Positions 6,213 through 50,656 of a stretch of DNA of 64,000 nucleotides are shown here, in pieces. The DNA comes from Myxococcota bacterium. GTDB lineage: Bacteria > Myxococcota_A > JAVEVO01. Position 1 is the stretch's first letter. Each line of letters begins with the position of its first letter. The notes under the pieces were generated by a model, which saw only the letters and a program-made list of their open reading frames with translations, ran no database searches and was not told the DNA's origin. A program made the translations under genes and the position numbers. Where the stretch lies: positions 467 to 64,466 of the forward strand of contig JAVEVO010000010.1 in the NCBI GenBank assembly GCA_034005005.1. The letters are read 5' to 3'.

Positions 6213-8615
6213 TCAAGGCACGAGCTGGTACTCCCGCTCGATGACCAGGGCGAGGTCGGGACCCTTCCAGTACGGCTCGATCCACCGCAGGCGCTGGTCC
6301 TTGTACTTCGGCGCGGCACGACGCCAGTGGCCCCGCACCAGGTAGCGGTGCATCAGGCTCCCGCCCCCGGGGCCGCGCTCGACCGACTGGAGCTGGCGGA
6401 GCCGGGAGATGGGGATGCGCCCGGGCAGCCGGTAGACGTGTTCGGACGGCGGCGCGGCGACCGTCGGCTTCCTCCCGGCCCGGGGCTCCTCCCGGCCCCC
6501 TCTTTCCGCGGCCACGCCCGGGCTGGTGGCGTAGAGGATCGCGTTGATCACGAGGTGCACGAGCCGGCGCAGGCGCGGCGAGGTGAAGAACGGGTCCCCC
6601 GGGGCCTGCTCCGCGTCGGGCGCCCGGCTCTCCAGGATGGCGTCGAGCCGCGCGCCGGGCTCGAGCCAGAGGTCGCGGCCGACCAGATAGGGTCGCTGCC
6701 CATCTCGGGCGTCGAAGGTGAAGGCCAGCCGGAGGATCCGCCCGTCCGGCCGTGGGACCTGCGTGACGTGCGCGGTCAGCACCTTCAGCATCCGGCCGCG
6801 GTGCGTCCCGGGCTCCTGGCCCAGCAGCCGCTCGCCGAGGCCGAGGGTGTAGCGGTCGTCGAAGACGATGGCGAACGCGGCGAAGGGCGGGCGCAAGGCG
6901 TCCGCCTCGATGTCGAGCGTGGTGTGGTCGAGCTGCCAGGCCAGCGACTCCTCGACCCAGAAGGTCTGGCGGTGGTGGAGCTCCCAGTTGACGATGGCGG
7001 CGAGGTGCTCGCCGAGCAGGTTGGCGTCGGCGACGGCGTCTTCCGGCGGCACGCCGCGACGGGCCTCGGCCTCGGCCCGGCCGCGCAGGAAGCGCTGCAC
7101 CGCCAGATCACGGGAAAGCTCCTCGGGGCCGACGACGGTCGCCAGGTCGAAATCGGCTCTGGCTCGGACCCGCGTGGCGAGCGCCACCGCGAGATCCCCG
7201 AGCTCGGGCAGGAGCCGGAGCATCGCCTCGGCGCCGACAGGCAGCGGGCCAGGCTCCCGGCTGGGTGCATCCGGCTCCCCGGCGATTCCGAGCTCCTCCC
7301 AGAGCGGCGTCGGATCGTAGCCCGGCGCGTCCATGCCCAGCGCCCGCTGGTAGGCCAGCTCGAACTCTTTGAGCAGCGCGACGAGCCGGGGGCGCAGCGT
7401 GCTCGACCGCGCCGCGACGCGGGGCGTGGCTCCGTCGAGCGCGGGGACCGGTTCGTCGACCCAGCGGCGGTAGTAGGCCTCCAGGTGGGCGGCGGTGAAC
7501 TGATCCAGCGCGTCGTCGTGCGGGACAGGTTTCGGCACAGGCCGATCTGCCTGCTCGAGCGCCGCCTGCCACGGATCCCGGAGCTGGGTGGCGCGGTGGC
7601 GCACCGCCCCTGGGGCGATCTGCTCCAGGAGCTGCTGGGCCCGGGCCGCGCGCTCCCGGGAGAGCCCTTCGTACAGCAGGAGCTCGCCTTGTAGGCGGAA
7701 GGTACCCCACAAGACGGTCGTCCCGTCGGGTCGGAGCGGCGCGCTCCAGCGATAGCTCTCCCCGTCCTCCTGCCGCTCGAGGCCGTCCGCCGCCTCGAGC
7801 GCCGCCACGAGCCGGTCCCGGTCGAGCACGGCGAACCGGCTCACGGCGAGGACCATCTCCTCGCCGTCGGTGGTCTGGAGCTGCGGGCGGTGAGTCAGCG
7901 GCCGGGTCCACTCGCCGTAGAAGCGGGGCGGCATCGTCGCCCAGAACTCGCTCTCCGCCAGGTCCGGATGGTCCTGGCGCCACTCGCCGAGCCCGTGGCG
8001 CAACGCCATCGCCAGTCCCGGCGCACCGTCCTGCGGGGACAAGGGGAACAGGCCGCCGTCCAGCTCTGGCCCTCCCGAGGGGCCGAGCGGGTTGACCCGT
8101 GCCGCCAGGATTGCGAACCGCCGCAGCGACTGTGACCCTGTGCGCTCCCGGACCGTCACCGTGCCGCCGTCGAGGATCTCGCGCAAGGTCACCGACTCGC
8201 CGGGGCGCACCGCGACGACCTCGTAGGCCCGCATGCGTGCGGAGGCCAGGCGCTGCAGGTAGGTGCGCTCGCCCGGGCCCAGGGCCGACCCGGCGAGCAG
8301 GTGGTCCACCGGCCGCCAGCCGTCGAGCAGCCGCCAGTCGAACGCGAGCCAGGCCTGGAACGCGTCGTCGGCCATCTCCGCCATCCCGGGGGTGGGGAGG
8401 TCGGCCAGCCCGGGGCCCTCGGCGAAGAAGACGCCCTCCGCCTCCGCGTGCCTGCTGGCCCATCCCGGTGCGTCGAGGAGACTCCGGATTGCCTCCCAGG
8501 CCCTGGTCCGGTCCCCCGGCGAGATGGCCGCGCCGCTCGCGGTCGGTCCGCAGCACTTCTTGTACTTCCGACCGCTTCCACACGGGCAAGGGTCGTTTCG
8601 GCCGATGCGCGACAT
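6213..8615 (-). CDS. SEC-C motif domain protein, copy 2 (800 aa, complete)
   Basis: ATG at 8615 with GGAGAGG RBS. Track ORF 6213..9086 extends 157 codons upstream through low-complexity R/G-rich sequence lacking codon bias. N-terminal SEC-C motif CPCGSGRKYKKCCG. Stop at 6213. Confidence 0.75.
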   Translation of the reverse strand: MSRIGRNDPCPCGSGRKYKKCCGPTASGAAISPGDRTRAWEAIRSLLDAPGWASRHAEAEGVFFAEGPGLADLPTPGMAEMADDAFQAWLAFDWRLLDGWRPVDHLLAGSALGPGERTYLQRLASARMRAYEVVAVRPGESVTLREILDGGTVTVRERTGSQSLRRFAILAARVNPLGPSGGPELDGGLFPLSPQDGAPGLAMALRHGLGEWRQDHPDLAESEFWATMPPRFYGEWTRPLTHRPQLQTTDGEEMVLAVSRFAVLDRDRLVAALEAADGLERQEDGESYRWSAPLRPDGTTVLWGTFRLQGELLLYEGLSRERAARAQQLLEQIAPGAVRHRATQLRDPWQAALEQADRPVPKPVPHDDALDQFTAAHLEAYYRRWVDEPVPALDGATPRVAARSSTLRPRLVALLKEFELAYQRALGMDAPGYDPTPLWEELGIAGEPDAPSREPGPLPVGAEAMLRLLPELGDLAVALATRVRARADFDLATVVGPEELSRDLAVQRFLRGRAEAEARRGVPPEDAVADANLLGEHLAAIVNWELHHRQTFWVEESLAWQLDHTTLDIEADALRPPFAAFAIVFDDRYTLGLGERLLGQEPGTHRGRMLKVLTAHVTQVPRPDGRILRLAFTFDARDGQRPYLVGRDLWLEPGARLDAILESRAPDAEQAPGDPFFTSPRLRRLVHLVINAILYATSPGVAAERGGREEPRAGRKPTVAAPPSEHVYRLPGRIPISRLRQLQSVERGPGGGSLMHRYLVRGHWRRAAPKYKDQRLRWIEPYWKGPDLALVIEREYQLVP

Positions 8616-9190
8616 GCCTCTCCTCGTGCGGCGATCCACCCGTGCCGGCGACTCCAGGAGGACTCGGATGGTCTCGATGGAGGCGGGTGATGCGCCGGGG
8701 CGGTGTTCCGGCTCGCCGGCAGCCACCGGGGTCACGCGCACTCCGAGCGTGTGTGCCTCAGAGCTGCCCTCGGGAGCACCCCGGAGTTGCTCGAACTCTA
8801 CCATGGCCCGGGCCTGGTCGTCATCGTCGTGGACCGGCCAGGTCGGCACCGTGCACCTTCCTGCCTGCGGCCCCCGTGATGTCTCCAGCAACTTTGCCGC
8901 TGGACCGTGGCGTCGCGCTCGACCCCGTGGCCATCGAGGCCTCGGGCCGCGTCGTGTCGAATCCTTCGAATGGCCGGCGACCCGCCCTGCACAGTTTCGT
9001 GCGGATCCCCCTCTCCTCTGTTGGCCCCCCAACTCCCCCCAGGCACCCCGTAGAACCCCCAGGGACCCGGTCGTTGGCAAGCACAACGTGCTGATTTCCT
9101 TTGTTTCTCGACTACCTATGATCCATTCCGTTCGCGCTTAAAATCCTCCGCCGCAAGGCATGCGGGTTCGAGTCCCGCTCCGGGTACCGC
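6242..9190. repeat. Copy 2 of the ~2.95-kb direct duplication
   Basis: See copy 1. Contains a diverged 24-nt patch (9111-9134 vs 2867-2890) and scattered indels in the last 250 bp. Confidence 0.9.
9162..9188 (+). other. tRNA-like T-arm/acceptor fragment, second copy (identical to 2919-2945)
   Basis: Same 27-nt sequence. Repeat identity ends at 9190. Confidence 0.4.
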
Positions 9191-22928: not shown

Positions 22929-24956
22929 TCAGGTCCCCTCGGCTGCGGTCGGCGAGACCTCCGCCGGCGGGAAGACGAAGTGCCAGGGCCTCGTGACCAG
23001 GCGCACGAGCAGCAGGCGCAGCAACGTCCACGTCTCGCGGAAGCCCACCTGTCGGGACTCCACGGCCATGGCCAGGGCCAGCCCGAAGCTGACGCCGAAG
23101 TTGACGAACCCGATGACCGCGACGCCGCCGAGGACCTCCAGCAAGAAGGTCAGCGGGATCCCCGGGCCGAGCACCTGCACCCCGACGCCCACGTGGGCCG
23201 CGGAGAAGGCGATGTGCCGGATGTCGAAGGGGAGGCCGAGGATCGTGCCCAGGGTGCCCGTGGAGCCGAGGCAGATCCCGAGGAACACGTTGCCCGCGAC
23301 CGCGCCGAGCTGCGCGTCGACGCGTTGCGCCAGCCGCTGCGTCAGGGCCGGGCCGAGCAGGGAGTTGAGCCCGGGATGGGCGGCGAGGCGGTCCGCGATC
23401 CGGGCGTACAGGTTGCGGTTGTCGAAGTAGCCGGAGATCAGCCCGGTGCAGAAGAGGTAGACCCCGGCGACCCCGGCGTAGAAGGCCGCCCCGCTGGCCC
23501 AGGGGTGCTGGGCCGCGAGCAGGTACTCCGCCTTGGCGGGGGTCGCGGGCGCCAGGCCCGACAGGCCGAGCAGGTAGGAGAGCAGCCAGGCGATGGGGAA
23601 GGCCGCGGCGAGGTTGCCGACGAAGGAGACGAACTGGCTGCGCGCGACGCACACGATCAGCTCGGCGAGCGCGGGGACGTCGTGGCCACCGTCCCGGCGG
23701 TCCAGCGACCGGGCGATGGTGCTCGCGGTCATCGCCGGCTGTTTGGTCGCGAGGGCCGCACCGGTAGCCTGGATCAGCAGGAACGCGAGGGCGTAGTTCA
23801 GGCTGAACAGGATGGCGTCGCCCGCGAGGGAGAGGTCCAGCCCGTCGACGATCAGCTTGGCGATGGCGAAGAGGCCGACGATCAGGCCGCCGCCGAGGCT
23901 CGCGCGGAAGAAGGCGAGGTACTCCGGGCGGCTGGTGGTGATGTACTTGCTCCCGCGCCGGGCGGCGTGCTCGACCACCTGGTAGGAGAGCAGGTCGGCT
24001 CGCTGGCGGAGGTGGGCCCGCAGGCTGTTGCGGGTGTTCTCGGCCTGCACCAGGTCCCGGATCAGCTCGATGAGCGCGTCGTGGAACTGGTCGTCGGCCT
24101 CGGCGCGTGTCGTCTCCTCCCGGTCGTGGGTGCGCAGGATACGTCCGGTCATCCGCAGCAGGATGCCGAGGCGGTCGATCTGCTGCAGCAGCCGGAAGGA
24201 GAGGGAGGTGAGCTGCAGGCTGGTGCCGACCCGCTGCTTGCGCGCGCGGAGCTGCTCGACCGCCTGCTGGCACTCGCGCAGCGTCGCCTGGAGCGTGCCG
24301 AGCGCGGTCGACTCCGTGCAGGCCGTCGCGTCGGTGAGGCAGCGCGCATAGGACTGGGCCTCGTCGGTCAGCCGCATGAACGGTGAGCTCAGCTCGTCGA
24401 GCTCGGGCATCCGGTCGGTGATCTCGGGGGCGAGGCCGAGGCTGGCGATGTTGAGCGCCAGCAGCCGGATGGAGCCGATGAGCTCGCTGCACAAGATGTC
24501 GCCGGAGGTGGCGCCGAGCACGCGCAGGAGGCGTCGCCAGGTCAGCTTGCCGATCAGGGCGACCCACTCGTGATCGTGGCGGGAGGGGAAGAGGCGGCGG
24601 ATGACGGTGCGCAGGTCGCGCGGTGGGTCGACTTCGGGCAGCAGGGTGTGGGAGAGGCGACGCGCGGCCTCATCGAAGAAGCCTCGATCGGAGGTGATGC
24701 CGGACTCGGTGAACGCCGGCATCACCCGCACCCCGCAGAGCGCGTGGCAGAAGGCGGCGCTGAGCCGTTGCCGGCGCTCCTCGTCGGCCTCGAGCACCTC
24801 GCAGAGCTCGACCATCGCGTCGTCGAGCCGGCTGGGCGGCTGACGACGCAGCAGCTCGACCAGCCTCCCGAGCCCCGTGAGGAGATCGTCGGGGTCGGCG
24901 TCGAGCTGATCGAGGACGGCCTCGAACTCCGCTCGCAGGCTTCGCTTTTCGACCAT
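22929..24956 (-). CDS. Large membrane protein of unknown function: ~330-aa soluble N-terminal region plus C-terminal multi-pass TM region
   Basis: ATG at 24956 (in frame). GC3 bias. Several hydrophobic helices in the C-terminal third. The 1723-aa track ORF 22929..28100 is an artefact beyond 24956. Confidence 0.7.
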   Translation of the reverse strand: MVEKRSLRAEFEAVLDQLDADPDDLLTGLGRLVELLRRQPPSRLDDAMVELCEVLEADEERRQRLSAAFCHALCGVRVMPAFTESGITSDRGFFDEAARRLSHTLLPEVDPPRDLRTVIRRLFPSRHDHEWVALIGKLTWRRLLRVLGATSGDILCSELIGSIRLLALNIASLGLAPEITDRMPELDELSSPFMRLTDEAQSYARCLTDATACTESTALGTLQATLRECQQAVEQLRARKQRVGTSLQLTSLSFRLLQQIDRLGILLRMTGRILRTHDREETTRAEADDQFHDALIELIRDLVQAENTRNSLRAHLRQRADLLSYQVVEHAARRGSKYITTSRPEYLAFFRASLGGGLIVGLFAIAKLIVDGLDLSLAGDAILFSLNYALAFLLIQATGAALATKQPAMTASTIARSLDRRDGGHDVPALAELIVCVARSQFVSFVGNLAAAFPIAWLLSYLLGLSGLAPATPAKAEYLLAAQHPWASGAAFYAGVAGVYLFCTGLISGYFDNRNLYARIADRLAAHPGLNSLLGPALTQRLAQRVDAQLGAVAGNVFLGICLGSTGTLGTILGLPFDIRHIAFSAAHVGVGVQVLGPGIPLTFLLEVLGGVAVIGFVNFGVSFGLALAMAVESRQVGFRETWTLLRLLLVRLVTRPWHFVFPPAEVSPTAAEGT

Positions 24957-38259: not shown

Positions 38260-40068
<1,809 letters not shown>

Positions 40069-44306: not shown

Positions 44307-45638
44307 TCAGGGATCGCGGTGGGGTGGTCCGTGGGGGACGGGCGAGCCGATCCAGAGCCTCTCCCGCACGCCGTCTGTCTGCAGCAAGGCCGGCCGGTCC
44401 GCGGGCGGCGCCGCGGCCGCGGCCCGGGTCAGACCCAGCAGCGCGGCCTTGTCAGCCTCGTCGGCCTCGTTCGGGACGAGGGGTCGGCCCATCAGTCTGG
44501 TGGCCAGCTCGGCCGGTGGCTCCGCCGGGGGGCCCGCGGGCAGGTCGGTGCGGCGGGGATCGAGGATCAGGTGCCGTTCCCAGGGGGAGACGTTGCGCCG
44601 GTACAGGAAGCTCAGCAGGTCCCCGACCACGGGCTGCTCCCGGGTCCATCGGGCCGCATGGGCCCAGAGGAGCTGCCCCGGCGCGTGGTGGTGCAGGGTG
44701 GCGACCAGCTCCGGGAGCACCCGGGCCAGGTCGTAGGCCACCACGAGGCCTGGGCCCGCGCTCGGTGCGAAGGGCGCGCAGGGGACGCCGAGCAGCTCGG
44801 CCGCGGCCAGGGCCAGGGTCTCGTTCTCGCGGTCGGGGAAGCTCAGGACCCGGGGAGGTGCCAGGGCGAGGGCCGACAGCACCCCCGCCAGGCGTGCCAG
44901 GGCCTGCCGGCAGCGGGTCTCGTCGTCCTCGCTCCGCTCCCAGCGGCCGCGGTCGCTGCCCGGGGTCCCGGGCGGCGCGGGCAGCAGCAGCAGCCCGCCG
45001 CTGATGACGAAGTGCCAGCCCCGCAGATCGTCGGCGTCCAGGGGGGTCACGGCGGCCACCACCTCGGCCCGGGCGAGCATCCCGGCCAGCCGGGCCTGGA
45101 GGAACCGCTCGGTGGCGTCCGCGGGGGGGCCGAGCGTGGTCAAGGCCTCCCGGGCAAATCTCAACTCACCCGCGAGCAGCAGGTTGAACGCGAGCAGGTA
45201 GCGGGTGAGGAAGGCGCCCGGCGTCCGGGAGGTGGACTCCTGGAGCAGCCGGGCTGCTTCCCGGTGCAGCCCCATGGTCTCCAGCGCGGCCACCTGCTCT
45301 TCGAGGAGCGCGAGCCGCTCCGGTTCCCGGGCTCGCGCCCGCGCCAGGGCCGCGACCGCCAGGCCCGGCAGCTCGGCTTCGAGGGCCGCCCGGGCGAGCT
45401 CGAGCAGCGGCGCGGGATCGTCGGGCCGGCTCGCGGCGAGCTGGCACCGTTCGGCGAGGGGCGGGGAATGGGTCTCGGCCGTCACGCGGGCCAGCAGCTC
45501 CAGCGCATCCGTCCACTGGCCGGGCTCGCGCAGGCCGTCCGGAGGATCGAGCAAGGGCAGCAGCAGCTCGAAGGCCCCCAGCGCGTCCTCGTAGCCGAGG
45601 GCCTCCTCGGCTTGCTCACGGACTTCCTCGAAGCGCAT
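44307..45638 (-). CDS. Hypothetical protein (444 aa) immediately downstream of the DUF4157 gene; candidate immunity or partner
   Basis: ATG at 45638 with GGAGAGA RBS. Helical repeat-like N-terminal half. Confidence 0.6.
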   Translation of the reverse strand: MRFEEVREQAEEALGYEDALGAFELLLPLLDPPDGLREPGQWTDALELLARVTAETHSPPLAERCQLAASRPDDPAPLLELARAALEAELPGLAVAALARARAREPERLALLEEQVAALETMGLHREAARLLQESTSRTPGAFLTRYLLAFNLLLAGELRFAREALTTLGPPADATERFLQARLAGMLARAEVVAAVTPLDADDLRGWHFVISGGLLLLPAPPGTPGSDRGRWERSEDDETRCRQALARLAGVLSALALAPPRVLSFPDRENETLALAAAELLGVPCAPFAPSAGPGLVVAYDLARVLPELVATLHHHAPGQLLWAHAARWTREQPVVGDLLSFLYRRNVSPWERHLILDPRRTDLPAGPPAEPPAELATRLMGRPLVPNEADEADKAALLGLTRAAAAAPPADRPALLQTDGVRERLWIGSPVPHGPPHRDP

Positions 45639-45706
45639 GGTCTCTCCGCGAAAAAGACGGTGGTGGTTGGGGGCGCGACCCGCTCCGGTCCGGCGGGCGC
45701 GGCCGC

Positions 45707-46954
45707 CTAGATGAAGATCCCCTCGGCCTCGTCGCAGGGGAAGTGCTGCACCGCGGGCCAGGCCGCGGCGACGGGGAGGTCCTCCTGGGTGTGGACCTTG
45801 CCCAGGTCGTAGGTGGTGCGGGTCTTGGAGATGTCGTCCACCTTGCTCGTGCTGTCGTAGACCGTGGCCTGCTCCCCCGCCTTCTTGGGGTTGGGGATCT
45901 GCTTCGGGCTCGCGCCGCGATAGCCCATGCCGATGGTCTGCTTGTGGTCGACCACCACCTCGTAGGAGCCGTAGAACTGGAGCATCTTGTCGGGGGTGGC
46001 GGCGTTCTTCTGGAAGCGCACGGGCAGCTCGCCGGTGGTGCCGGCCCGGGTCCCCTCGCTCCAGGTGACGATCGCCCCGCTCGCCTGGCTGAGCTGCTTG
46101 GCCAGGCCGGCCTTCGCCTTGTTGTCCGTGGAGGTCTTCAGCGCGTCCTTGGCCTCGACCAGCTTGGCGTAGAGCTGCTTGAAGGAGAGGACCGTCTTCT
46201 CGCGAGCGGCGGTGATCTTGGTCGCAGCGGCCTGGCGGGTCTTGAGATAGGCGTCGTAGGAGGTGAACTTCGTGCTGAGCCCGGGCGCCGGGACGAACGC
46301 ACCGTCGGGCGCGTAGCCCGTGGTCAGCCGCTCCTGCAGCTTGGCGTCCGTGACCTCGGGACCATGGCGTTTCAGGCTGTGCCCCTGGTCGCGGTCCTCG
46401 AGGGCCGTGGCGTCGACCTTGTCCTGGGCCTCGTCGCGCTGGATGGCCACGCCCGGTGAGCCTCCCCCTTGGATCATCCCGTCGAGCAGGGGCACGGCCG
46501 AGCGTCCGGCGGCGACCGTGCGGGCGACCTCCTCGGCGGCTTGCTCGTACTCGTCGCCGGCCTGGCCCACGCCGCCGGAGGGGATCAGCCCGTGCCGTTG
46601 CTGGATGACGTGCGCGGCTTCGTGGGCCGCCAGCGCGAGGGTGGGAGGCTTGGCGAAGAAGATCTCCTCGCCACAGGCCACCGCGTTGGCCCCTTGCGCG
46701 GTCGCGGCCGCGGCCGCGTCCGGCCCCTGGTGGACCCGGATCCGACTGACGTCGTGCTGCCCGAACGCCGGCGCGATGCGGGAGAGGAAGGGCAGCGGCC
46801 CACCCGCGTCCTGGGGCTGCAAGGCGTCGAGCTGATCCTCGTAAGGCAGGTCGCCCAGGCGGCGCCGGGACTGGGCCCCCTTGGTCTTGCCGGAGGCGGT
46901 GTCCGAGGCGTCGGGGAGCGCGGAAGACTGCGGACGCTGGCTCTGCTCTTGCAC
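45707..46954 (-). CDS. DUF4157-domain protein (HExxH: AHEAAHVIQQ) with a Lys-rich lower-GC C-terminal domain of unknown function; putative secreted toxin/effector
   Basis: GTG start with AGGAGAGG RBS. DUF4157-like block GQHDVSRIRVHQGPDA...AQGANAVACGEEIFF...AHEAAHVIQQ. C-terminal 250 aa has ~62-64% GC. Confidence 0.8.
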   Translation of the reverse strand: MQEQSQRPQSSALPDASDTASGKTKGAQSRRRLGDLPYEDQLDALQPQDAGGPLPFLSRIAPAFGQHDVSRIRVHQGPDAAAAATAQGANAVACGEEIFFAKPPTLALAAHEAAHVIQQRHGLIPSGGVGQAGDEYEQAAEEVARTVAAGRSAVPLLDGMIQGGGSPGVAIQRDEAQDKVDATALEDRDQGHSLKRHGPEVTDAKLQERLTTGYAPDGAFVPAPGLSTKFTSYDAYLKTRQAAATKITAAREKTVLSFKQLYAKLVEAKDALKTSTDNKAKAGLAKQLSQASGAIVTWSEGTRAGTTGELPVRFQKNAATPDKMLQFYGSYEVVVDHKQTIGMGYRGASPKQIPNPKKAGEQATVYDSTSKVDDISKTRTTYDLGKVHTQEDLPVAAAWPAVQHFPCDEAEGIFI

Positions 46955-47986: not shown

Positions 47987-48789
47987 CTCCCGGGCTCCCG
48001 GGAGCCGGCGTCGGCCTGCCGGTGAGCCTCGTGGAGCTCCGCGCCCGGCCCTGGCCGGCGCAGGTCGTCGCCCTGGAGGACCGCGGGAACCTCCCCGGCG
48101 TGCAGCCCCCAGCCCACCAGGGCCTCGGCCAGGAGGGAGGCGTTCGTCGAGCGGTACCGGGCCTGGAGCAGCCGGAGGCCGAGCAGCCCGGCGAGAGCCA
48201 GCAGCCCATCGCCCAGCTTGGCGCCCAGGCGCTCCAGGGGACGAGGCTCCTCCCGGTCCGCACCAGTGATGATCGCCGGGCGCGCGATCCGCGTCTCCAG
48301 ACCGCTCGTCCGCAGTTCCTCCTCGAGCTGCCAGCGCGCCTGGAGGTAGGCCAGGCGAGAGTCCGGGCCGACGCCCAGGGCCGAGAGGAGGACGATCCGG
48401 GGAGCGAGTCCCGCCCGCCGGACGGCCTGCAGCAGGAGGTGGCTCAAGCCGTAGTCCACGGCCTGGTAGGACTCGGCGGCCGGCAGGCGGCCCGCCCGGC
48501 GGGCCTGGCGGGCCCTGGCCTTGGTCGTACCCAGCAGCAGGAAGACCAGGGTCGGCTGGGCCCGGACCAGGGCCGCGGCCAGGGCCTCCTCCTCCCAGGG
48601 GGTGGTGTCCACCCGGACGTGCGTGCCGAGGCTGTCGAAGCGGCTCGACCACTCGGTCAGCCGGGGCGAGTCGGGCCGGACATGGGCCCAGGTGACCACC
48701 CCGCGGGCCGCCAGGCTCTGGACCACCGCTCGCCCGACGTAGCCGGTGGCCCCTGCCACCCACGCCACCTGCGTCGCCACCTCGGCCAT
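47983..48789 (-). CDS. NmrA-like/atypical SDR NAD(P)-binding protein
   Basis: AGGAGG RBS. GATGYVGRAVV Rossmann motif. Confidence 0.8.
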   Translation of the reverse strand: MAEVATQVAWVAGATGYVGRAVVQSLAARGVVTWAHVRPDSPRLTEWSSRFDSLGTHVRVDTTPWEEEALAAALVRAQPTLVFLLLGTTKARARQARRAGRLPAAESYQAVDYGLSHLLLQAVRRAGLAPRIVLLSALGVGPDSRLAYLQARWQLEEELRTSGLETRIARPAIITGADREEPRPLERLGAKLGDGLLALAGLLGLRLLQARYRSTNASLLAEALVGWGLHAGEVPAVLQGDDLRRPGPGAELHEAHRQADAGSREPGR

Positions 48790-49042
48790 GATCGACCTCC
48801 TGCCTCCGATCGTCCCCCAACATCTTCGGCACGAACCTGCGGAAGACAACCGGCGCGGGGAGGTGATCGCCGGGAGGAGGCGCGTGTCCTCGATGCGTGG
48901 TCGTCGCCCTCCCGGTCGTTCGACGATCTTGACAAGCGGGAGGGGTGGCGCTTTCCTCTGGAGACTCGAACGAGATCGCTGCTGCGTCCCGACAGGGGGG
49001 TTGGCCTGGGGGGAGCGGCGGCTGGCCGTCGGAGGGAAGAGG

Positions 49043-50656
49043 ATGAATCGCTACGGTCTGCTTGCGAGCCTCTCGGGGCTGTTGCTGCTCTTCGCCGCTG
49101 TCGCCGGCTGCGACGATGGCGGTGGTGGTGGGACGGGAGAGGGCGAAGGAGAGGGCGAAGGAGAGGGCGAAGGAGAGGGCGAGGGCGAAGGTTCGGAGGG
49201 CGAGGGCGAAGGTTCGGAGGGCGAGGGCGAAGGTTCGGAGGGCGAGGGCGAAGGTTCGGAGGGCGAGGGCGAAGGGGCCGAGGGCGAGGGCGAGGGTTCG
49301 GAGGGCGAGGGCGAAGGGGCCGAGGGCGAGGGCGAGGGTTCGGAGGGCGAGGGCGAAGGGGCCGAGGGCGAGGGCGAGGGTGAAGGGGAGTGGACGCTGC
49401 TCGGGTCCGCCGAGTGGGAGGGAGACTGGATCGTCCTCACCCCCGACGAGGGCAACCTGGCCGGCGCAGCCTGGCACGCCGTCCCCCTGACCCTCGAGCG
49501 GGATCTGGTCGCCGAGTTCAAGGTGCACCTCGGCACCGACGATGCAGCCGAGGAAGGAGCCGACGGGCTGGTCGTGGTACTCGCCACCGAGGCGGTCGAG
49601 GCCGCGATCGGCGAGGGACTGGGCTACCAGGGGATCCTTCCCTCGGTCGCGGTGGAGCTGGACACCTTCCCCAACGACGGCGAGCACCTCGGCGACGATC
49701 AGGGGGATCCCCTCCTCGATCACCTCGCCGTCGACGTCGACGGCAGCGTCAACCACACCGACGGCGGACTGCCCCTGGTCGAGGTCGGCGAGGTCGAGGA
49801 CGGGCAGGAGCACACCCTGAAGATCGAGTGGCTGGCCGCAGCCCAGACCCTGAAGGTCTGGCTCGACGGGGGCGCGGAGCCCGACCTCACCTGGACCGAG
49901 GACATCGCGGGCACCTACCTCGCGGGGGCCTCCGTGATCCGGCTCGGCCTGACCGCTTCCACGGGTGCGTTCAGCAACCGTCATGCGTTCTTGCCCGTCC
50001 GCATCTCCCAGGGCTCGAGCGGTGAATGGGTGCTGGTCGGCTCGGCGGTCGAAGAGGGGGCGCGGCTCGTCCTGACCCCGGACCAGGGAAATCAGGCCGG
50101 TGCGGCCTGGCGCAAATCGCCGCTCGATCTCGCGGTCGACTTCTCGCTCCAGGCCCAGGTCTACCTCGGCAGCAAGGACGACGACGGCGCGGACGGGATC
50201 GTCTTCGCCCTGGCCACGGAGGAGGCGACGGCCGAGGTCGGCGAGGGCCTCGGCTTCCAGGGCATCACCCCCTCCTTCGGCATCGAGATCGACACCTACC
50301 CCAACGATGGCGACCACCTGGGCAGCGACATGGCCGACCCCCTGGCCGATCACCTCGCGTGGGTGGTGGACGGCAGCGTGGACCACCACGCGCAGCCCGA
50401 GGGCACCCTCGTCGAGGTGGCCAACCTCGAGGACGGCGGGGAGCACCTGCTGGAGATCGATTGGCTCGCGGCGACCCACACGCTCGTGGTGAACCTCGAC
50501 GCCTCGGCCCAGCCGCTCCTGGTGATCGTGGAGGATATCGCGACGACGCGCTTCGGCGGGGTCGGCAAGGTGCGCTGGGGCTTCACTGGCTCGACCGGCG
50601 ACGCGAGCAACCTGCAGTACGTCGTGCCGCTGGAGATCCCGGCCGCGGCGCAGTGA
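49043..50656 (+). CDS. Lipoprotein: (GEGEG[SA]E)n linker followed by two L-type (legume-like) lectin domains
   Basis: GGAGGGAAGAGG RBS. Lipobox VAGC. ADGLVVVLAT, VAVELDTFPND, DHLAVDVDGSV, LTASTG...H blocks repeated twice. Confidence 0.85.
   Translation: MNRYGLLASLSGLLLLFAAVAGCDDGGGGGTGEGEGEGEGEGEGEGEGEGSEGEGEGSEGEGEGSEGEGEGSEGEGEGAEGEGEGSEGEGEGAEGEGEGSEGEGEGAEGEGEGEGEWTLLGSAEWEGDWIVLTPDEGNLAGAAWHAVPLTLERDLVAEFKVHLGTDDAAEEGADGLVVVLATEAVEAAIGEGLGYQGILPSVAVELDTFPNDGEHLGDDQGDPLLDHLAVDVDGSVNHTDGGLPLVEVGEVEDGQEHTLKIEWLAAAQTLKVWLDGGAEPDLTWTEDIAGTYLAGASVIRLGLTASTGAFSNRHAFLPVRISQGSSGEWVLVGSAVEEGARLVLTPDQGNQAGAAWRKSPLDLAVDFSLQAQVYLGSKDDDGADGIVFALATEEATAEVGEGLGFQGITPSFGIEIDTYPNDGDHLGSDMADPLADHLAWVVDGSVDHHAQPEGTLVEVANLEDGGEHLLEIDWLAATHTLVVNLDASAQPLLVIVEDIATTRFGGVGKVRWGFTGSTGDASNLQYVVPLEIPAAAQ

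Follow-up and report, generated by a model that had tools for sequence, protein, structure and literature searches.

A DUF4157 protein with a candidate RNase A-like toxin domain and its linked TPR-containing partner in a Myxococcota bacterium

We analysed a 64,000-nt stretch of a Myxococcota bacterium (JAVEVO01; contig JAVEVO010000010.1, positions 467 to 64,466), referred to here as the window (64 kb, 72% GC), and in particular two adjacent genes on its minus strand. Gene A encodes an effector-type protein with a DUF4157 domain and a C-terminal region of apparent toxin type, and gene B, directly downstream, encodes a protein with a tetratricopeptide repeat (TPR) domain followed by an alpha/beta domain. 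Their features, in window coordinates, are as follows; some boundaries come from models of AlphaFold2 (AF2).

45707..46954, minus strand: gene A, effector-type protein of 415 aa (open reading frame, ORF; GC at third codon positions, GC3, 0.94; AGGAGAGG, resembling a ribosome-binding site, before a GTG start)
46790..46954, minus strand: N-terminal region of gene A, residues 1-55, Q/S/P/D/G-rich (read directly from the sequence)
46589..46789, minus strand: DUF4157 / eCIS_core domain, residues 56-122 (Pfam PF13699, E=2.4e-15, 56.9 bits against a cut-off of 22)
46610..46624, minus strand: HEAAH, residues 111-115, an intact zinc-metallopeptidase-type HExxH motif (read directly)
45710..46408, minus strand: C-terminal toxin-type domain, long form, residues ~183-415
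46055..46258, minus strand: predicted helical hairpin, residues ~233-300, part of an insertion of ~70-90 aa absent from compact forms (AF2, bimodal motif spacing)
45639..45706, minus strand: intergenic spacer of 68 nt, in which GGAGAG precedes the gene B start codon (ATG)
44307..45638, minus strand: gene B, partner of 443 aa and candidate immunity protein (ORF)
45057..45638, minus strand: N-terminal TPR domain of gene B, residues ~1-194
44409..45026, minus strand: C-terminal alpha/beta domain of gene B, residues ~205-410 (AF2 model, conservation)

The gene A call was reproduced on JGI metagenome contigs, which encode an identical protein. A DUF4157 module had been proposed for this protein from the sequence, and the Pfam match to PF13699, a family now named eCIS_core, bore this out together with the HEAAH motif; an HExxH motif has been described for DUF4157 (PMC8213781). 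Residues 1-55 contain no signal peptide and, judged by their low-complexity, polar composition only, look disordered. By analogy, they may sit where characterised cargo of an extracellular contractile injection system (eCIS), namely AlgoCIS Cgo1/Cgo2, has its disordered loading sequence. In AlgoCIS, the disordered N-terminal region is needed for loading and DUF4157 is dispensable (bioRxiv 10.64898/2026.05.27.728243).

The C-terminal part of gene A proved to be Lys-rich, as had been noted, at 9.5% Lys (N-terminal part, 1.7%; gene B, 0.2%); Thr accounts for 9.9%, and the GHSLKRHG stretch lies at residues 191-198. Its GC content had been given as ~62-64%, a value that did not hold. Over residues 173-415 we measured 68.3%, which is no outlier in the window, as 10.7% of windows of that size have the same or a lower value. 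Codon usage in this domain is fully host-adapted, with a GC3 of 96.7% (90.1% in the N-terminal part) and Lys encoded by 22 AAG and 1 AAA. The lower GC of the domain is thus due to its amino-acid composition (GC1 0.63, GC2 0.46) and not to foreign codon usage. Given a GC of 68.3%, a GC3 of 97% and the 10.7% of windows that are as low, we rejected composition as evidence for a recent domain swap.

Residues ~183-415 of gene A gave no match in Pfam, NCBIfam, PADLOC or PDB sequences, whether searched as a single sequence or as profiles. A word-indexed search of 5.8 billion proteins returned three relatives only (36-42% identity), and an exhaustive hidden Markov model (HMM) search with their alignment then found 320 representatives of clusters at 50% identity with E<1e-3, 201 of them with E<1e-10. 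In nearly all members the domain ends no more than 30 residues from the C-terminus, and the proteins range in length from 144 to 2355 aa. A Pfam scan of 94 members detected DUF4157 at the N-terminus of 28, WXG100 in 3, RHS in 2 and PT-HINT in 1, and no match over the domain itself in any of the 94. The family has a patchy distribution over phyla, with members in Chloroflexota, Clostridia, Acidobacteriota and Myxococcota, among others. Because of its C-terminal position and the differing, export-associated N-termini, we read the domain as a polymorphic-toxin warhead, and the C-terminal region of gene A is a portable module of this type. The earlier idea of a swapped toxin domain thus stands on the domain architectures seen elsewhere, behind DUF4157, WXG100, RHS and PT-HINT, and not on composition.

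The domain has a core of ~165 aa. Its nearly invariant residues (gene A numbering) are G191, H192, R196, H197, G198, P199, R209, G213, S227, F230, T239, R240, G344, H404 and P406. The spacing between the GHSxxRHG and QHFP motifs is bimodal: 133-167 residues in 65 members, which we call compact, and 207-262 in 35, which we call long, with 5 further members at 308-404. Gene A is of the long form, which carries an inserted helical hairpin and a QHFPCDExEGI tail. The AF2 model of its C-terminal domain was poor (pLDDT 55.5, from an alignment of 4 sequences); it placed helices at positions 61-102 and 106-128 of the C-terminal fragment, with pLDDT 64-82. A plasmid search with one compact domain gave no match. 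One long-form toxin, P0004 (L004:408-1631), has no DUF4157, and its N-terminus contains a LQAALGNRAVRRSL motif. We take this motif to resemble one that is common at the N-termini of DUF4157/eCIS-associated proteins.

We then compared the genes downstream of the toxin genes. A homologue of gene B directly follows the toxin gene in 10 of the 10 long-form loci with downstream sequence (the window, L001/L002, L003, L004, L036, L093, L101, L102, L103 and L104); the downstream gene is thus a conserved partner, in agreement with the proposed pairing. In L001/L002 and L003, the two genes overlap by 4 bp and the B proteins are 37-39% identical; the homologues in L101, L102, L103 and L104 match with E from 1e-39 to 1e-106. 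At L004, B is reduced to a 42-aa fragment (14.2 bits), a score reached by none of 2000 shuffles. The loci span GC contents of 0.49 to 0.75 and their upstream genes are unrelated, and A-B is therefore a conserved unit. In the window, gene B lies on the same strand at exactly the 68 nt predicted; its length, given as 444 aa, is 443 aa, because the stop codon had been counted. No terminator-like site was found in the A-B spacer on this strand, and a scan for sigma-70-type promoters gave no sites. In L001 (787-2114), the B homologue is split over two frames and is intact in the near-identical L002, so that either a frameshift or an assembly error may account for the split.

Gene B gave a confident AF2 model (pLDDT 92.5). 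Its alpha/beta domain had no Pfam or PDB sequence match, and the residues conserved across the family are D204, L205, R206, G207, W208, H209, G231, R232, D238, Y302, Q322, D340 and W353. A Foldseek search of the PDB with the C-terminal domain returned weak matches of the OGT/SPY type (E ~3e-4, TM 0.29); this modelled resemblance to TPR plus Rossmann-like proteins may serve as a lead only. We found 51 homologues besides gene B itself, and an identical copy in NCBI is annotated as a hypothetical protein of a Myxococcota metagenome-assembled genome. One metagenome motif scan yielded 222 relatives. Of the metagenomic B-family loci, 50 had 1 kb or more of upstream sequence; the toxin was present in two of these (L036 and L093), and it was absent from the B-family loci L005, L006 and L008 (Microbispora).

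Neighbour-joining placed the 7 distinct toxin-linked B proteins in two basal groups, outside a single clade that holds all 71 stand-alone proteins. Toxin-linked copies also differ systematically from stand-alone ones (S221A, M229x, Q347x, S436x and the C-terminal Phe). The original prediction had held that a downstream gene conserved in genomes lacking the toxin would speak against a pair. At the level of the B family the partner is indeed conserved without the toxin, yet the toxin-linked proteins separate from the stand-alone ones in the tree, and the distribution therefore does not cleanly refute the A-B pairing. The simplest reading of these sequences is that the long-form toxin acquired its partner from one branch of a B family that already existed. 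Approximately 18 stand-alone homologues (L072-L098) share a downstream histidine-kinase-like gene, a conserved synteny within one lineage that may be a clue to what the family does natively.

Ten compact-form loci were taken from genomes of Herpetosiphon, Clostridia, Pseudomonadota, Algicola, Sumerlaeaceae and Bryobacterales, and gene B was absent from all of them. Directly 3' of the toxin gene, nine of the ten (L009-L012 and L014-L018, from five phyla) carry a small conserved gene (e.g. L011:6564-7010, L014:4465-4854 and L015:1723-2076). The encoded proteins are ~112-150 aa long (209 aa in L012), share the motif Y[LI]xxVTxxWFxxxDLPPE and show no similarity to B; they are likely to form a dedicated immunity family. 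The distinct downstream genes indicate that the compact and the long toxin are each accompanied, in the immunity position, by a partner family of their own. In Herpetosiphon, a second gene (L009:7191-8465, L010:7184-8458) lies ~700 nt downstream of the first toxin/immunity pair and is followed by more small ORFs. Its N-terminus, MGAEIVQAQYDQL..., is similar to those of the WXG100 type in P0090 and P0097, and on this pattern L009/L010 would be a tandem polymorphic-toxin array.

The possible chemistry of the warhead was examined by comparison with CdiA-CT of Yersinia kristensenii (Ykris), a bacterial RNase A-like toxin. A stretch of 32 Ykris residues (LIDRHVGKTEAELLNRVSTGN...) was rebuilt from the mutagenesis primers in PMC5435912 and verified to be residues 4-35 of 5e3e_B. 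This fragment aligned to the HMM of the gene A domain family exactly at RH...R..TG, with a score equalled in 32 of 5000 shuffles (p ~0.006). The Ykris catalytic residues H175 and R186 fell on the invariant H197 and R209, and G190 fell on G213, which is invariant as well; in the block that follows, SASSF parallels LSTKF. The C-terminal KIITGYP of Ykris parallels the compact consensus KVVQHFP (AVQHFP in gene A), and the C-terminal fragment GYKIITGYPTP was not significant alone against the family HMM. Y278 is often Phe in Ykris homologues (PMC5435912), which fits QHFP in place of TGYP. The Ykris-type domain also occurs in CdiA, Rhs, type VI secretion system (T6SS) and WXG100/T7SS (type VII secretion system) effectors (PMC5435912), in agreement with the architectures of the gene A domain family. 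These alignments suggest that the C-terminal domain is probably a distant nuclease of RNase A-like fold with its own active-site variant. In this variant, H404 would sit where His116 of angiogenin and T276/Y278 of Ykris lie.

With the RNase A-like toxins of PF18431 (Ykris CdiA-CT, PDB 5E3E), the gene A family shares a position as C-terminal warhead behind RHS, WXG100 (T7SS) and PT-HINT, an RH-x(10-11)-R-[VL]-[ST]-T-G block followed by S-x-x-F, and a C-terminal strand ending in [IV][IV]-x-x-[YF]-P. Unlike them, it has an extra invariant His (H192) and an RHGP motif, and an 8-residue loop insertion (APDGxFSP). The invariant Thr of Ykris (T276) is replaced by Gln403, which is nearly invariant and is followed by the invariant His404, and there is no match at the level of HMMER. 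The helical hairpin of ~70-90 aa and the QHFPCDExEGI tail set the long form alone apart from these toxins. The domain should accordingly not be classed as a member of PF18431.

DUF4157 is highly specific to eCIS loci, and fusions of DUF4157 to toxin domains have been described (PMC8213781). Gene A shares with the eCIS-associated toxins (EATs) and cargo (Geller et al. 2021, PMC8213781; AlgoCIS Cgo1/Cgo2) a disordered-looking stretch before DUF4157, the DUF4157 domain with HExxH, a linker and a variable C-terminal effector domain. Like that of most predicted DUF4157 EATs, its C-terminal domain is unannotated; for 983 predicted EATs, no second domain is annotated (PMC11297309). An immunity gene is missing beside many eCIS toxins (PMC8213781), and gene A differs from many EATs in having a conserved downstream partner gene. 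It also differs from EATs in that neither in the 64-kb window nor at the homologous pairs does the gene lie in or next to an eCIS operon.

The classical polymorphic toxin-immunity cassettes reportedly treated by Zhang and colleagues in 2012 (CdiA-CT/CdiI, Rhs-CT/RhsI and LXG/Imm) share with A-B a toxin domain at the extreme C-terminus and an adjoining, sometimes overlapping, downstream partner gene. In both, a switch of toxin subtype is accompanied by a switch of partner family. The difference lies in the partner, which in the classical cassettes is a dedicated immunity protein of 80-200 aa and here is a 443-aa TPR plus alpha/beta protein of a mostly toxin-independent family. Tri1 is a DraG-like ADP-ribosylhydrolase that confers enzymatic, dual-mode immunity against the T6SS toxin Tre1. 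By analogy only, B resembles Tri1 in belonging to a broad family that also occurs far from toxins and in keeping the conserved residues of that family. The toxin chemistry differs between the two cases, and B, unlike Tri1, is not known to have an enzymatic activity or an assigned fold.

Taken together, these results suggest that A is an effector of the polymorphic-toxin or eCIS-cargo type with an RNase-like warhead and that B is its cognate partner, most likely an immunity protein; we give this reading a probability of roughly 0.6. The domain architecture, the mobility of the warhead among N-terminal modules, the linkage of the long-form toxin to B, the distinct grouping of toxin-linked B proteins and the lack of delivery genes in the window are shown by the data, and the mechanism that follows is inferred. 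The N-terminal region and DUF4157 with its HExxH motif would form the trafficking, loading or processing part of an exported A, which may be delivered by an eCIS encoded elsewhere in the genome. The C-terminal domain would act as a metal-independent RNase that cleaves RNA in the recipient cell, with H197 as the general base and R209 stabilising the transition state, in line with H175 and R186 of Ykris. Q403-H404-F405-P406 would replace T276-G277-Y278-P279 of Ykris, with H404 as a possible proton donor. In the producer cell, B would bind and block the toxin, and its TPR groove might plausibly grip the helical hairpin that is specific to the long form.

Several results weigh against this reading. 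PF18431 was not matched by gene A at E<=1, by ten compact members at E<=10 or by the 94 members at E<=0.001, and the C-terminal domain has no significant sequence match to 5e3e. Pfam scans of ~30 window ORFs revealed no eCIS, T6SS, T7SS or Rhs component, as the original prediction had stated for delivery genes in the window, and there was no delivery apparatus near the homologous pairs in L102 and L104. No PADLOC family matched gene A or B. Gene B is 3-4 times larger than typical immunity proteins, and ~95% of B-family loci lack the toxin. The toxin-linked B proteins keep 72% of the residues that stand-alone ones conserve, a hint that B has a function of its own besides binding the toxin.

Some of these points suit a different role for B. 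It could be a TPR chaperone or adaptor that keeps the toxin loadable or folded, or an enzyme that reverses or repairs the toxin's damage, with strict immunity absent or provided otherwise. TPRs are a common chaperone or adaptor module, the invariant D, R, H and W of the alpha/beta domain are retained in toxin-linked copies, and the toxin independence of most of the family, the many eCIS toxins without an immunity gene (PMC8213781) and the weak Foldseek resemblance to the TPR-plus-Rossmann enzymes OGT/SPY point in the same direction. We nevertheless regard such a role as unlikely, since B occupies the classic immunity position directly downstream, sometimes with a 4-bp overlap; compact-form toxins carry a small immunity-like gene in that same place, which suggests an immunity slot; and the toxin-linked B proteins cluster apart with their own substitutions (S221A, M229x, Q347x, S436x). 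Similarly doubtful is a related view, in which B is more than a passive plug: it would come from a widespread family of TPR plus alpha/beta proteins that have a biochemical activity of their own, and would have been captured by the toxin lineage. The hairpin insertion would then have evolved as a docking site, and B would serve as an enzyme or regulator that might, for instance, repair or undo damage to RNA or control when the toxin becomes active. In that case, the stand-alone proteins would be a pointer to a cellular pathway, so far unrecognised, on which the toxin acts.

The pair could also be an intracellular toxin-antitoxin or abortive-infection module, with B as a TPR sensor that keeps A's RNase-like domain in check pending a phage or stress signal, and without any export. 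Defence systems often combine TPR sensors or RNase effectors, and the missing signal peptide and the lack of a secretion system in the window or near homologous pairs would fit. We consider this improbable, given that neither protein matches PADLOC, that the C-terminal domain is fused to the export-associated WXG100, RHS, PT-HINT and DUF4157, and that DUF4157 is so specific to eCIS loci (PMC8213781). Least probable is that the pair has no role in conflict, A being a DUF4157 metallopeptidase with a housekeeping C-terminal domain and B an unrelated TPR neighbour. The 10/10 linkage across unrelated contexts with GC from 0.49 to 0.75, the shuffling of the C-terminal domain among toxin-delivery N-termini and the patchy spread of its family across phyla argue against it, even though codon usage matches that of the host throughout, ordinary metabolic or envelope genes flank the pair, and no tRNAs or meaningful flanking repeats were found as boundaries of a mobile element.

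DUF4157-toxin fusions with unannotated C-terminal domains are common, and gene A is in this respect of a kind already known. What is new is the definition of the warhead family, tentatively affiliated with the RNase A-like toxins and with a changed active site; its division into a compact and a long form that come with different partner families; and a partner of 443 aa, made up of a TPR and an alpha/beta domain, whose own family mostly occurs without the toxin. If the reading of A as an effector and B as its partner holds, a toxin-domain family of ~320 clusters without a Pfam or NCBIfam model would be placed, tentatively, beside the RNase A-like toxins. It would show an active-site variant with His for Thr-x-Tyr, at the place where the second catalytic His of RNase A/angiogenin superimposes. 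One toxin fold in two forms with two partner families would also offer a natural experiment on the rewiring of immunity specificity, and the toxin linkage would be the sole functional handle so far on a widespread family of 440-aa TPR plus alpha/beta proteins. For annotation, DUF4157 proteins distant from eCIS loci can still be recognised as parts of effector-partner cassettes.

On the same strand, upstream of A, lie genes for an alpha/beta hydrolase and an NAD-binding protein, and downstream of B lie a convergent transglycosylase gene and an adenine deaminase gene. The Pfam-scanned window ORFs further include sensor kinases, a trypsin-like protease, an MscS channel, a Ser/Thr kinase, RsgA, lectin and EGF lipoproteins, dihydropyrimidine dehydrogenase and an aquaporin. 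A PF10136 site-specific recombinase (E=5e-175) is encoded at window ~22929-24870 on the minus strand, ~20 kb from the toxin pair, and no link between the two was found. Two predicted lipoproteins with long acidic (GEGEGx)n linkers are encoded at 38260-40068 (minus strand) and 48746-50656 (plus strand); one has MopE/EGF Cys-rich repeats and the other tandem legume-lectin domains. The (GEGEGx)n repeats account for a strong GC-skew excursion at 49000-49500. Two large, paralogous-looking proteins, at 1-2611 and 6213-9137 (both on the minus strand), have the SEC-C motif as their sole Pfam match.

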